A stretch of 64,000 nt of DNA from a virus (IMGVR_UViG_3300050491_000011); one strand, 5' to 3'. Counted from the stretch's first letter, positions 3,443 to 56,359 are shown. Notes: generated by a model from the letters alone, not told the origin. Numbers and translations: made by a program.

Positions 3443-3475
3443 CATAAGGCCCGGCGTGAGCCGGGCTTTATGCTG
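3443..3475. terminator. Bidirectional hairpin terminator, CATAA...TTTATGC class
   Basis: CATAAGGCCCGGC-GTGA-GCCGGGCTTTATG between convergent genes. Confidence 0.8.
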
Positions 3476-10189: not shown

Positions 10190-10203
10190 TCACTATTATA
10201 TAT

Positions 10204-10470
10204 GTACTAGGCTGCTTCGGGCTGATGAAGCCAAGTATCATGCTAGGTGGGCTCACACGCTCCTCCACCTAGCCACTGAGGTCGGGACGCTCTCCTCGAC
10301 CTAGGCGTTGATGTTCGCGGGTTCGTCAACGTCTTGTTAGGTACTCAGTACTTAGCCGTTTGTTCAGGGTATTGCGAGAGCGCGCCTTGAGCAAACGGAT
10401 AGCTACTGCGCCCCTGTGTGTTATCGGTATTCTCCCCACCCACTGGATTCGTCTGGTGGGTGGGGTTTAT
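10204..10470 (+). ncRNA. Candidate structured ncRNA 1
   Basis: No ORF with an SD; six tandem hairpins plus a terminal 14-bp UUCG hairpin; G-U pairs fit only the + strand; starts at TATG 10201-10204. Confidence 0.65.
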
Positions 10471-10534
10471 GCTGCGTTAATAAACCGCAGTCACACATTA
10501 CCATTTTAGATACACCAACCAAAGGAGAAGTTCC

Positions 10535-12691: not shown

Positions 12692-13402
12692 ATGACTGCT
12701 ACAAATAACGCTGTACGGGTAATGGCTGCACTGGTTGAATCCGGTGGTCGTTACATCGATGGTCACAACAACCAGACGACCGCCGTCAAGTACGCTGCAA
12801 TCTTCAAGCGTCCTGACATGGAAGACATGGTTGTACCTCTCCTCACCAACACTTACTTCTCCTTGAGCGCCATCGAGGTCAATGAGGATGGTGTACTCCG
12901 CATGTCTCCGTGGTCTGTCGGCGGTGTAGTCGATAGCCGTGGTCTGACCATGGAACAAACTATCGCTGCTTTCAACGAGTCCTACAAGACCAGCTCTCTG
13001 GTAGAGCTTACCGAGTTCGAAGCGAAGCCTGAGCCTAAGGAAGAGAAACCTTTCTTCCTGCGCCGTGAAGCTTTCTACAGTGGCAACACTGAAGGTGAGA
13101 CTCACGATGCTGAAGGTACGATCTTCTACCGTAACTCTTACCACAACACCATCAGCGACAAGCCGGCTGTTGACTGGCAGATCGCACGCGCCACTGGGTT
13201 GAAACCGAACGACGTCTATGTTCGTGAGTACACCGAAGAAGGCAAGATCCGCAACTACGTTCACCTGCCGGTGATGGAGAAGCTGATCGAGTACAGCGAC
13301 TTCTGCAACGCCAACGGTATCCAGTGCGCCGAGATCCGTAATCTGGATGCTATCAAAGCGGCCATCGCTCAGTTCTATCAGCTGCGCGGCATCATCTGCT
13401 AA
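12692..13402 (+). CDS. Hypothetical protein (236 aa)
   Basis: ORF with AGGAG SD and biased codons. Confidence 0.85.
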   Translation: MTATNNAVRVMAALVESGGRYIDGHNNQTTAVKYAAIFKRPDMEDMVVPLLTNTYFSLSAIEVNEDGVLRMSPWSVGGVVDSRGLTMEQTIAAFNESYKTSSLVELTEFEAKPEPKEEKPFFLRREAFYSGNTEGETHDAEGTIFYRNSYHNTISDKPAVDWQIARATGLKPNDVYVREYTEEGKIRNYVHLPVMEKLIEYSDFCNANGIQCAEIRNLDAIKAAIAQFYQLRGIIC

Positions 13403-13408
13403 TTAGGG

Positions 13409-13438
13409 TGGGGACTTCGGTCCCCATTCTTTTTTTTT
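13409..13438 (+). terminator. Intrinsic terminator
   Basis: TGGGGAC-TTCG-GTCCCCA plus T-run. Confidence 0.85.
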
Positions 13439-13480
13439 GTCGTAATCCGTAATTAGTTACAGATGGCGATGTACTACTAT

Positions 13481-13807
13481 GTAGAAACACCCTCGTTGAT
13501 TAGTCAACGCCCAGTTGATACACCTAGCTCTTTTACAATTTGGGTCTCCCTGCCGATAGTCTTGAGTACGGTGCCAATACGGTCACGCTCTTGCTTCCCT
13601 CGCATAGACAACTCGCTTAGCTGGTATAAAGCCCAGCAAACCCCTAGCGGTCTGACAGAGTCTGATCGCGTTCCCTAAGAGTTTGGAATAGTACCAGTAC
13701 AGTACGGGTTCAATCGCCGCGATTGCTTTAGTACTCGAACAAACGTGCCGGGCCTTTCGGAGCATCCCGTAAGAAATATAAAGCCCGGCCTCGCGCCGGG
13801 CTTTATG
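13481..13807 (+). ncRNA. Candidate structured ncRNA 2
   Basis: About 330 nt between an 18-nt promoter-like motif plus TATG and a terminator; several short hairpins; no convincing ORF. Confidence 0.4.
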
Positions 13808-13810
13808 CTG
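13778..13810. terminator. Hairpin terminator, ATAAA...TTTATGC class
   Basis: ATAAAGCCCGGC-CTCGC-GCCGGGCTTTATGCTG. Confidence 0.8.
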
Positions 13811-13890
13811 CATGCGTAATAAAAGAAAACAGAGTCTTATATTGTACACTTGAATCTATACCGCCCCTAATACCCGCACGGAGCATCAAC

Positions 13891-14688
13891 ATGTCTGCCT
13901 ACCTGTCGCAACAAGATCAAATCAAAGTCAACATTCTGGAAGGCTACGCTCCTCGCAAGCTTACCAATGTGGAAGTCATCATCAACGAGATCCGTCTGTT
14001 CGATTGGACCTATCCTGATAGTGACTGCCCTAAGGCCTACAGGGCTGGCGCTGAGCGTAAAGAAGTTCTGCGTAGCGCTATCTCCTACACGCTTGGCGAT
14101 AACCCGTCTCTCGCTACTCTGGCGCGTGCTGCGCTGGAAGGTCAACAGGCCCGTAACGATCTGTTTGACAAATACCCGTACGTCAAGCACTTCGATCTGA
14201 TGAATGCCAAGCACCACAAAGGTCTGCTCGGTTGTCATCTGGCTGGTATTGAAGAACATCGTGTCCGTGGAGCCATCAGCTTCCTCAAAGACCTCTACGA
14301 CGTCGTTGTAGCGCTTCCAGCGAACAAGAGCAACGTATTCATCTCCACCAATAGAACGCCGATGTATCGCGAGCTGAGAGCCATTGCTACCAACTCCAAG
14401 GTTCCGGCTCTCTTCGGTATGGCGATCCCGGCTCCGCTTCAGAAGCAGGTCTATGAACTCCTGCGTATCAACACGTATACGCTCGACACCATCCAGACGT
14501 ACAGCCTGCACTGCACCGACGAAATGATGGATTACTACAAGAACCATCCGAGCGCCAAAGAAGCTTTCCGCGTCTTCAATATGTTTGAAGTCGTTAACTG
14601 CCCTTACGTGCAGGATGCGAAGTATCTTCAGGTCATCATGAATGATCGGTACTACTCGTTCTACGTCAAGCGTAATCAATTCGTGTAA
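13891..14688 (+). CDS. Hypothetical protein (265 aa)
   Basis: ORF with GGAG SD and biased codons. Confidence 0.85.
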   Translation: MSAYLSQQDQIKVNILEGYAPRKLTNVEVIINEIRLFDWTYPDSDCPKAYRAGAERKEVLRSAISYTLGDNPSLATLARAALEGQQARNDLFDKYPYVKHFDLMNAKHHKGLLGCHLAGIEEHRVRGAISFLKDLYDVVVALPANKSNVFISTNRTPMYRELRAIATNSKVPALFGMAIPAPLQKQVYELLRINTYTLDTIQTYSLHCTDEMMDYYKNHPSAKEAFRVFNMFEVVNCPYVQDAKYLQVIMNDRYYSFYVKRNQFV

Positions 14689-14733: not shown

Positions 14734-15549
14734 GTGATTTCCGTGAGCGATATTAAAGTCATGGTTAGCGGTGCAGTGGGCGTTGGTAAGAGTCACGTAT
14801 TGGCGGTCATTGAGCGAGCCTTGAATGAGGCTTACGGAGATACCATCAAGATCGAATGTGAGGACACTGAGAGCGAGCGTCGATCTATCGGTGAAGACAT
14901 CCGTGAGTGGCAGCAGCCTACGGTTGAGAAGATCATTCTAACGCCGTATACGGCGTGGCGTCGAGAAGAGATCGTTGAGGATGGCGACGTACCTGCCCTC
15001 GATTACTTTAGTGAGTGGACGACAGGTCGGGTAAGTGAAGTAGTCCCTGCTAATCTGTCTCCGTCTGAAGTCAGCGATATGGTTAAAGCTTTCGATGAAC
15101 TGTATCCTCCGTTCAAGCCTCGGTACGAATCGCTGAATGGTCGGATCATTCGGATGGATGAAGGTCATCCAACTGCGGCTAAAGCAGCTCTCGCCAAACT
15201 GGCTGAGTCTGCGAACTTACTGCACGTCGAAATGTTCATGCCGGGTGATACCAACCAGATGATCGGGCTGGGTTACATGAATGACGCCAACCTCGCAGTG
15301 CAGTACGCGAACCTTATTAAAGGCATGGTCTTCGATATGGCATTCGTTGAACCGTACTTCGGTGATCAGGAAAAGGTCACTACGTTCCGTAATGTAGAAG
15401 TCCAGTCTGCGATGACTCAAAAGAATGACGGTAAGACTTCAGCGTCCGTTGGATTCAAAGTCGGTAAGATGCGCGTCCACCTTCGGAATAAGCACGACAA
15501 CGATCCATTGCAGTTCGGCATTCCTCTTGGCGTTACCGAGGAAAGCTAA
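14734..15549 (+). CDS. Hypothetical protein with N-terminal P-loop-like motif
   Basis: VMVSGAVGVGKSH Walker A-like motif; start codon uncertain (GTG). Confidence 0.7.
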   Translation: MISVSDIKVMVSGAVGVGKSHVLAVIERALNEAYGDTIKIECEDTESERRSIGEDIREWQQPTVEKIILTPYTAWRREEIVEDGDVPALDYFSEWTTGRVSEVVPANLSPSEVSDMVKAFDELYPPFKPRYESLNGRIIRMDEGHPTAAKAALAKLAESANLLHVEMFMPGDTNQMIGLGYMNDANLAVQYANLIKGMVFDMAFVEPYFGDQEKVTTFRNVEVQSAMTQKNDGKTSASVGFKVGKMRVHLRNKHDNDPLQFGIPLGVTEES

Positions 15550-15582
15550 TCCGTAATTAATTACGGGTGATGGAATCAGTAT

Positions 15583-15767
15583 GTGAGAACGTCCTCCGAC
15601 CATTAAAGTCCTAAGCTTGGTCGCCCAATGTCCTGCGTGGTCGTGGGGTGTCTTCACGTTCAATGAGAAGTTGTACGGTTGCGGTATTTCCTGTGCTTAA
15701 ACTCTCATCCGCTCATTGAACATCTTGCACTCCGTCGGTGGCTTCGGTCATCGACGGGGTTATTTTT
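15583..15767 (+). ncRNA. Candidate structured ncRNA 3
   Basis: Starts at TATG 15580-15583; 6-bp and perfect 10-bp stems; 13-bp C(UUCG)G terminal hairpin with 3 G-U pairs; no ORF. Confidence 0.5.
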
Positions 15768-15836
15768 CGCTTTATGCTGCATGTTAGGGATCGTATGTAG
15801 TGAATTGGTTCGCTACTTTTAGCAAGGAACTTCACC

Positions 15837-56055: not shown

Positions 56056-56065
56056 TGTGATTGGG

Positions 56066-56110
56066 GTAGACAGGATCTTAATGGTCCTGTCTACTTCGAT
56101 TTATGCTGCG
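56066..56110 (+). terminator. Terminator after the portal gene
   Basis: GTAGACAGGATC-TTAAT-GGTCCTGTCTAC, then TTTATGCTGC. Confidence 0.75.
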
Positions 56111-56142
56111 TGTTAATTATTCACTATCACACTTGCTTTTAT

Positions 56143-56292
56143 GTTAAAGAGCTTTCTTCCTTATTCTAGAGGAGACGTAGTAACCTAGACTAGAAGTCTA
56201 GGGGACGAAGTCGACGATGGACTAACGTGAAGGAGTCGTAGACGACTGAACCTCTCTAGTTCTTTACTAGGGAAGGGGAGGGGGCTTTTTGC
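56143..56292 (+). ncRNA. Candidate structured ncRNA 4
   Basis: Starts at TATG 56140-56143; 17-bp closing stem 56146-56162/56274-56290 with 6 G-U pairs; internal perfect hairpins. Confidence 0.55.
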
Positions 56293-56359
56293 TGTATAGT
56301 TAAATTTACTTGGGTGATACATTACAAACCCGATATGTAAACCCCCGAGGAACAACACC

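Follow-up and report, generated by a model that had tools for sequence, protein, structure and literature searches.

Jumbo phages that form a nucleus rely on polymerases of their own and transcribe within a protein shell; in the chimalliviruses transcription takes place within the phage nucleus and translation outside it. Little is known of post-initiation regulation in these phages or of the roles that short RNAs play in them. In phage T4, the species 1 and 2 RNAs (rnaC and rnaD) are stable RNAs of unknown function that are expressed with the phage tRNA genes; they are encoded within the tRNA cluster and cut out of its transcript. In phiKZ the late promoters consist of TATG with the G as +1, while the middle promoters carry an AAanTTACc element centred at -24, in some cases ahead of a TATG at the start site, and a DNA-binding protein with a recruiting role has been suggested for this middle class (PMC4666361). 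A tRNA of 201phi2-1 is transcribed from a middle promoter (PMC11512511). Most terminators in the 5' UTRs of phiKZ yield an abundant short RNA together with a read-through form (PMC10914365), and 201phi2-1 likewise displays abundant short RNAs, premature termination in 5' UTRs and a read-through fraction (PMC11512511). The papers found on these two phages describe only short RNAs that were defined from transcripts.

The locus considered here comes from a 188-kb IMG/VR virus record, estimated to be 75% complete, whose last 64 kb constitute the window, that is, the whole stretch of 64,000 nucleotides that was analysed. A large virion protein encoded in the window shows 26-34% identity to its counterparts in phiKZ, PhiPA3, 201phi2-1 and other nucleus-forming jumbo phages, and the genome contains a weak match, below the cut-off (20 bits, E = 7e-5), to the active-site domain of the RNA polymerase beta' subunit, which is consistent with a divergent beta'-like fragment. 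Because of these virion protein matches and the weak beta' match, we regard the source as an uncultured nucleus-forming (phiKZ-like) jumbo phage. The region is present in DNA runs of rhizosphere, soil, root, compost and digester origin, diverged copies occur in roughly 20 runs, and contigs from four DNA runs contain diverged relatives in soil, root and digester samples; no RNA run holding the region is listed among the public runs. The 29-base core pattern of the RNA is unmatched in a collection of bacterial and archaeal genomes, which hence gives no clue to the host; for the clade a Pseudomonas host is suspected.

The predicted RNA sits in a gap of 488 nt that separates a 236-aa gene (12692-13402, +) from a 265-aa gene (13891-14688, +). 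No known family was found for either flanking gene; the 265-aa downstream protein matches no Pfam or PHROG family, its atlas scores (0.80) do not exceed chance, and its AlphaFold model is poor (pLDDT 54.7). Using the two flanking proteins we gathered ten distinct relatives from soil, root and compost metagenomes (L009, L011, L013, L014, L017, L025, L045 and L048, and the partial L018 and L049); L023 is identical over the 3' domain of the RNA, and L022 and L047 are duplicates of others. These relatives are close, with downstream proteins 71-98% identical, and accordingly offer few independent covariation events. The features of the gap, all on the + strand, are as follows.

13405-13439, + strand: intrinsic terminator of the upstream 236-aa gene, a hairpin (13405-13430) with a T9 run, kept in all relatives.
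13443-13460, + strand: 18-nt motif TAATCCGTAATTAGTTAC, one mismatch away from 15547-15564.
13447-13462, + strand: core of the motif, an imperfect inverted repeat CCGTAA-N4-TTAC(A)G, with TTAC at -24 to -21 from G13481.
13478-13481, + strand: TATG, in which G13481 is the predicted transcription start on the basis of the sequence and of phiKZ analogy, then UAGAAAC, which carries the GAAC element common to the four units with this motif.
G13481 to about 13807-13810, + strand: predicted RNA of about 327-330 nt, indicated by fold, conservation and covariation.
13494-13509, + strand: hairpin H1, CGUUGA/UCAACG, with a G-C to A-U change in L011 and L009.
13518-13543, + strand: mostly conserved stretch AUACACCUAGCUCUUUUACAAUUUGG, predicted to be single-stranded, varying at positions 13524-13525.
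13544-13557 with 13600-13609, + strand: helix H2, with compensatory G-C to C-G and C-G to A-U changes.
13558-13595, + strand: hypervariable hairpin capping H2, whose stem differs in sequence and length in each lineage, with indels that are not all multiples of three.
13620-13637, + strand: hairpin Ha, GCUGG/CCAGC, with an invariant 8-nt loop; invariant in the relatives.
13647-13669, + strand: hairpin Hb, GCGGUC/GAUCGC with inner GAC/GUC, showing U-A to C-G in L045 and G.U to G-C in three relatives.
13670-13686 with 13748-13763, + strand: P1-like long-range helix Hc of 14 pairs, showing C-G to U-A and A-U to U-A changes in L013, L014 and L018.
13701-05 with 13731-35, + strand: helix Hd, C-G to U-A in L011.
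13711-16 with 13720-25, + strand: helix He, CAATCG/CGATTG, invariant.
13747-13753, + strand: GCCGGGC, part of the 3' strand of Hc and 5' strand of a candidate antiterminator, perfectly complementary to GCCCGGC at 13783-13789.
13766-13771, + strand: CCCGUA, possible pseudoknot partner of UACGGG (13703-13708), with 100% of cells paired and one-sided wobble changes only.
13777-13807, + strand: closing terminator with a 13-bp stem and 5-nt loop, running into TTTATGCTG, of the genome's common terminator type.

The first-pass annotation had proposed a non-coding RNA lying behind a shared motif and a TATG and ending at a terminator, and this proposal is supported by the conservation, the compensatory pairs and the promoter-like character of the motif. 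Its individual elements could also be recovered: the TATG is present at 13478-13481; the terminator that it placed at 13409 is the hairpin with the T9 run at the end of the upstream gene; about 330 nt run from the TATG through the final terminator, which is the 13-bp hairpin at 13777-13807; and all the hairpins it listed exist in that interval. The five CCCT tracts that it counted are likewise present, but only two of them, 13547-13551 and 13596-13601, are invariant in the relatives. The terminator at 13405-13439 would keep transcription begun further upstream from entering the RNA unit.

The + strand folds better than its shuffles (z = -2.39), whereas the - strand does not (z = -0.36). In the 5' part of the predicted fold, H1 is dispensable, being deleted in the L013 lineage, and H2 holds a conserved CCC / UUCCCUC internal loop beneath its hypervariable cap. 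The 3' domain is organised by Hc, which surrounds invariant internal loops and the helices Hd and He; four of its 14 pairs are U.G wobbles, namely three consecutive invariant pairs at 13682-13684 and a single pair at 13671. The possible long-range TACGGG/CCCGTA pairing competes with the better supported local helix Hd. A further 5' helix suggested by RNAalifold, CUAUGUA with UACACCUAG, uses bases 5' of the predicted start and is broken in relatives, and was rejected. As a separate observation, TATAAAGCCCAGC (13625-13637, the loop and 3' arm of Ha) equals the terminator 5' arm TATAAAGCCCGGC (13777-13789) at 12 of 13 positions, both copies being invariant in the relatives; the Ha copy could act as a decoy or as an alternative partner of the terminator 3' arm.

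Searches with Rfam 15 detected no family at gathering score over the whole window, and between 13470 and 13830 at E <=10 they returned only terminator-hairpin matches of 12-19 bits against cut-offs of 35-100. The riboswitch classes of Rfam 15 gave no match, and the T-box model (RF00230) gave none even at E <=10. The 3.8-kb region has no match among GenBank phages, and blastn of the RNA alone against the same phages retrieves terminator-like 20-33-mers only. In pPa_SNUABM_DT01, the nearest cultured relative found, the covariance model finds nothing, and the motif occurs once in a context that is not comparable. Three extra IMG/VR matches of the 19-nt loop pattern share nothing beyond those 19 nt and were set aside as chance. 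A covariance model of the 3' domain recovers only the RNA itself in its own genome and in the complete relative, and thus no paralog.

Candidate 1 (10190-10480), a second candidate RNA in the window, lies in the same 6-kb neighbourhood and belongs to the same phage clade. Like the RNA described here it is ORF-free, begins at a TATG, ends in a terminator followed by TTTATGCTGC, is conserved above its flanking genes and shows compensatory changes; it differs in that CCGTAA-N4-TTAC is missing upstream, in a stronger fold (z = -5.92, in line with the earlier remark that the present RNA is the more weakly structured of the two) and in having no detectable homology to it. The short words that the first-pass annotation saw in both are present, yet the kinship they might imply is unsupported: CACGCTC falls in the hypervariable hairpin, CACCTAGC varies among relatives (CACCCAGC, CACACAGC, CACATAGC), and the covariance model identifies no paralog. 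On this basis the shared words look like chance. Homology to candidate 3 (15583-15776) was rejected along with that to candidate 1, as the model finds only itself, and with candidate 3 only the promoter and the first ~15 transcribed bases are shared. Candidate 3 has a 5' end, GAACRYCCUYYGRYC, that pairs with GGUCGUGGGGUGU, both strands varying across six sequences, and a 10-bp stem and a canonical terminator lie downstream; it looks like a real structured RNA as judged from these pairings.

The 18-nt motif at 13443-13460, which had already been noticed together with its one-mismatch copy at 15547-15564, is expected by chance in only 0.06 matches at <=3 mismatches in shuffles. The full pattern, CCGTAA-N4-TTAC followed after 15-17 nt by (T/G)ATGT, occurs four times in the 188-kb genome, always on the + strand, with an expectation of 0.0 in 100 Markov simulations. 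The four sites precede only RNA loci: the tRNA array, a region termed Segment A, the present RNA and candidate 3. The sites also exist in a complete 254-kb relative and at every relative locus. Two of them lie outside the window.

Genome 88868-88900, + strand: tRNA-array site, a perfect inverted repeat CCGTAAAAAGTTACGG, 15 nt, then GATGTTCGAAC, about 110 nt before tRNA-Asn.
Genome 115883-116520, + strand: Segment A, with the motif start CCGTAA-N4-TTAC...TATGTGAAC, 7.7-8.3 kb before the window.

From its position, the motif at 88868 is likely the promoter of the operon that contains the tRNA and tRNA-like array. Segment A comprises about 600 nt without a convincing gene, after which come T-rich sequence and TTTATGCCGC. 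Its identity to the complete relative is 85%, it has no match in Rfam, and it is probably another large structured RNA. All four units continue with G-U-(1-3 nt)-GAAC, and the present RNA and candidate 3 additionally share GAA(A)C-R-CCCUC. TTAC occupies -24 to -21 in the present RNA, and stands at -23 in Segment A and -22 in candidate 3 and the tRNA array, before (T/G)ATG. This placement of TTAC and the TATG with G as predicted +1 resemble elements of the phiKZ middle and late promoters; from the middle promoter the motif differs in that the AA part is unmatched and in that it is an inverted repeat. Because only RNA loci follow the motif and its TTAC and TATG are positioned as in phiKZ, we infer by analogy that it is a middle-type promoter or operator dedicated to RNA genes, with G13481 as the predicted start.

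Certain other recurrent elements of the genome deserve mention beside this motif. The commonest terminator is a long palindrome, (C)ATAAAGCCCGGC-loop-GCCGGGCTTTATG, then C(C/T)G, often serving both strands, with examples in the window at 3446/3469, 16375/16398, 16903/16926 and 40428/40453. The word TATGC(C/T)G has 27 of its 47 copies in intergenic regions (about six-fold enriched), and only nine of these 27 face a nearby co-directional gene; it was rejected as a general promoter and is mainly a terminator signature, although it could be a promoter in single cases. A TTAGTAATG-TATG motif followed by AT-rich sequence recurs in five copies, all on the - strand (window 40496; genome 22422, 70618, 72570 and 97169), and may represent a further promoter class. 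Finally, a 304-nt intergenic region of the window (56056-56359) opens with ATTTATGCTGCGTG (56099), with no hairpin before it, and might be a long leader or a further RNA.

In the relatives the 3' half of the RNA (13620-13810) is 96-99.5% identical and gap-free, whereas the upstream and downstream genes of the same relatives are 67-82% and 87-94% identical respectively; even in the most distant relative the RNA is 91% identical against 77% for the downstream gene. Conservation, which the first-pass annotation had proposed as a check, is thus reversed relative to a normal spacer, the 3' half of the RNA exceeding the genes around it. The 5' half is more variable, with indels of 1, 2, 7 and 15 nt. 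Two further patterns were observed in the surroundings. The 80-nt leader of the 265-aa gene (13811-13890, +) is 97.5-100% identical against 87-94% for the coding sequence, and is kept beyond what a ribosome-binding site requires. Comparison of L023 with window positions 12692-14688 reveals a mosaic, in which the upstream gene is 99.9%, the RNA 100% and the downstream gene 95.7% identical; a recombination joint lies at the RNA or just beyond it.

Over the whole RNA, RNAalifold on six sequences yields 89 pairs, nine of them with compensatory changes. For the 3' domain we evaluated a fixed five-helix structure on 11 sequences: 99.0% of the cells are standard pairs, a share that drops to 29-36% once the partners are displaced by 1-3 columns. 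Two-sided changes affect four pairs in three helices (U-A to C-G in Hb; C-G to U-A and A-U to U-A in Hc; C-G to U-A in Hd), a count equalled by at most one in 500 shuffles, and the compensatory partners in Hc are about 80 nt apart. The functional strand is the + strand, because the four invariant or near-invariant U.G pairs of Hc would be A.C on the other strand.

The 3' domain may be read as a riboswitch-like conditional terminator because the GCCGGGC of Hc is able to base-pair with the terminator's 5' arm. The segment of Hc that covers GCCGGGC is weak, pairing GUUUGG with CCGGGC through three U.G pairs. In a nascent RNA ending at 13792 the antiterminator is the better fold (-46.0 vs -37.8 kcal/mol), and in the full-length RNA it is Hc together with the terminator (-59.3 vs -49.5 kcal/mol). 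When the 5' arms of the genome's 58 hairpins with perfect stems of at least 9 bp were each tested against the 110 nt upstream, the antiterminator pairing, at -16.0 kcal/mol, ranked first of the 58, and 1.1% of dinucleotide shuffles reach it; with a chance level near 1% the switch pairing is suggestive without amounting to proof. No relative carries a change in the antiterminator or terminator strands, which leaves covariation uninformative on them. The reading that we tentatively prefer, giving it a little less than an even chance, is that of a structured leader with a conditional terminator, which would also release a stable RNA of about 330 nt. Transcription would start at the TATG (G13481) under an inverted repeat CCGTAA-N4-TTAC at about -24, which is probably recognised by a dimeric phage DNA-binding protein. 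The transcript would then present a 5' domain whose helix ends in a variable tip, then two small hairpins, and lastly the conserved 3' domain closed by Hc. If Hc were kept closed by a ligand, protein or RNA in the phage nucleus, the terminator would form and the ~330-nt RNA would be released; if Hc opened, the antiterminator would form and the polymerase would continue into the 265-aa gene. The promoter-like motif with its TATG (13443-13481) and the hairpin at 13777-13807 both precede the next start codon at 13891, as judged by sequence. Ribosome-coupled attenuation is excluded because transcription and translation occur in separate compartments, and such a switch would therefore have to sense another RNA, a small molecule or some protein imported into the nucleus.

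Alternatives to this scheme concern both the nature of the locus and the function of its product. That the gap harbours a small protein gene, either the 71-aa ORF on the + strand (13463-13678) or an antisense 88-aa ORF (13583-13849), is scarcely credible, even though both frames are open in the window and in the two nearest relatives. Protein-level conservation of these frames had been named in advance as an observation that would count against an RNA, and in the remaining lineages they are instead truncated, frameshifted or lost: the 71-aa ORF is shortened to 41 aa in L011, is without a start in L009 and the L013 lineage and is lost from L017, where neither strand has an ORF of at least 30 aa, and the antisense ORF is reduced to 30-57 aa or missing in several relatives. 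Moreover, the indels are not all multiples of three, a ribosome-binding site is missing before 13463, the 71-aa ORF begins 5' of the predicted transcription start, its product matches no PHROG family, and no gene-caller prediction falls inside the gap in any relative. The gap might otherwise be a DNA-level element, a spacer kept by recombination between mosaic phages or a binding platform, with incidental RNA folds; the L023 joint close to the RNA and the resemblance of the palindromic motif to a protein-binding site speak for it. It is nevertheless a very improbable explanation, as compensatory changes preserve pairs about 80 nt apart, the U.G pairs function on the + strand only, and the lineage-specific replacement hairpins preserve the stem and not its sequence; a DNA site would be expected to show none of these. 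A structured RNA is the only reading of these sequences that fits the conservation, the covariation, the variable stem tips and the broken ORFs together.

As regards function, the main rival of the conditional-terminator leader is a stand-alone, stable, trans-acting RNA, made from its own promoter alongside the phage tRNAs and terminated at the hairpin in every case, which would bind protein as a scaffold, decoy or sponge, its complementarity to the terminator arm being incidental or structural. Several features of the locus are at odds with a switch, and some of them would suit such an RNA. The perfect 13-bp hairpin is of the ordinary gene-ending type common in this genome and befits a constitutive stop; the TATG overlapping its 3' end could itself start the downstream mRNA, making read-through unneeded; the promoter class is shared with tRNAs, which are stable and trans-acting, and with two other ORF-free loci; candidates 1 and 3 are outside the top antiterminator pairings; and a length of about 330 nt with a separate 150-nt 5' domain exceeds the need of a switch. 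The invariant long loops and single-stranded stretches suggest sequence-specific recognition, and candidate 1 nearby offers a case of an RNA with compensatory changes. However, the antiterminator pairing is the strongest of the 58 hairpins and overlaps Hc, the helix with the best covariation, in a riboswitch layout, and the RNA is always directly 5' of the same gene, whose leader is nearly invariant. We accordingly rate the conditional-terminator leader over the purely trans-acting RNA, which is a serious possibility but a rather doubtful one. It is improbable that the RNA regulates by base-pairing, with its pyrimidine-rich single strands (UCUCCCU, UUCCCUC, ACACCUAG) directed at ribosome-binding or other mRNA sites of phage or host. 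Two invariant CCCU-containing loops could serve this purpose, and a search of the phage genome for exact complements of at least 12 nt returned, besides terminator look-alikes, two 14-mers, one of which, at genome 75992-76005, is a perfect complement of 13673-13686. Yet about 0.4 such 14-mers are expected by chance, in the complete relative the 75992-76005 site shows no co-variation with the RNA, the second 14-mer is internal to a coding region, some 110 nt past the start, and CACCUAG varies among relatives. The first site falls in a 187-nt gap between genes on a rough gene map (genome 75944-76130), 91.5% conserved in the relative, which holds a cysteine-rich open frame (..ACLACQLVGKKKCVRVCQ..) and is possibly a small protein gene.

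Extending the conditional-terminator reading raises the possibility of a phage "RNA regulon", in which an operator-promoter CCGTAA-N4-TTACGG drives the tRNA and tRNA-mimic array and three structured RNAs, the present one being a sensor of the phage nucleus at which the phage multisubunit RNA polymerase would stop or read on depending on a metabolite, a protein brought in from outside or one of the phage's tRNA-like RNAs; we consider this larger scheme speculative and unlikely. The locus offers a conserved RNA with defined helices and a putative switch resting on two short strands, and the motif ties it to a tRNA operon and two further structured RNAs. Should the switch prove real, no riboswitch-like element would have been shown before to work on a phiKZ-type polymerase. 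Failing that, the locus would still represent a new family of stable phage RNAs that shares its regulation with tRNAs and is found widely in metagenomes from soil and the rhizosphere.

In relation to known systems, a close parallel is with the short RNAs of phiKZ and 201phi2-1, which also occur in chimalliviruses, arise from a start followed by a terminator before a gene, and are conserved in related phages; there too an abundant short form and read-through are thought to coexist. Those RNAs are shorter than 250 nt and were defined by ONT-cappable-seq (PMC10914365; PMC11512511), whereas the present RNA, at a predicted length of about 330 nt, would exceed the 250-nt filter of those studies and is defined from sequence; the two have no sequence similarity, with blastn touching the terminator only, and the covarying helices, the dedicated promoter class and the predicted antiterminator pairing are extras found here. 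With the transcription-terminating OFF-type riboswitch leaders of bacteria it shares a folded conserved domain and a P1-like closing helix; the 3' strand of this helix overlaps a candidate antiterminator, whose other strand would, as in those leaders, be the 5' arm of the intrinsic terminator. Unlike in those leaders, the hairpin is followed by UUUAUG and not by a long U run, there is a large extra 5' domain, and the polymerase would be the phage multisubunit enzyme acting in the phage nucleus. The likeness to the T4 species 1 and 2 RNAs, drawn from their description only, lies in the tie to tRNA expression, although here the RNA is 49 kb from the array and linked to it by the shared motif alone. 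Judged by its sequence, then, the RNA forms a new family within a general kind already known, to which it adds a predicted class of promoters for RNA genes and a switch-like 3' end.
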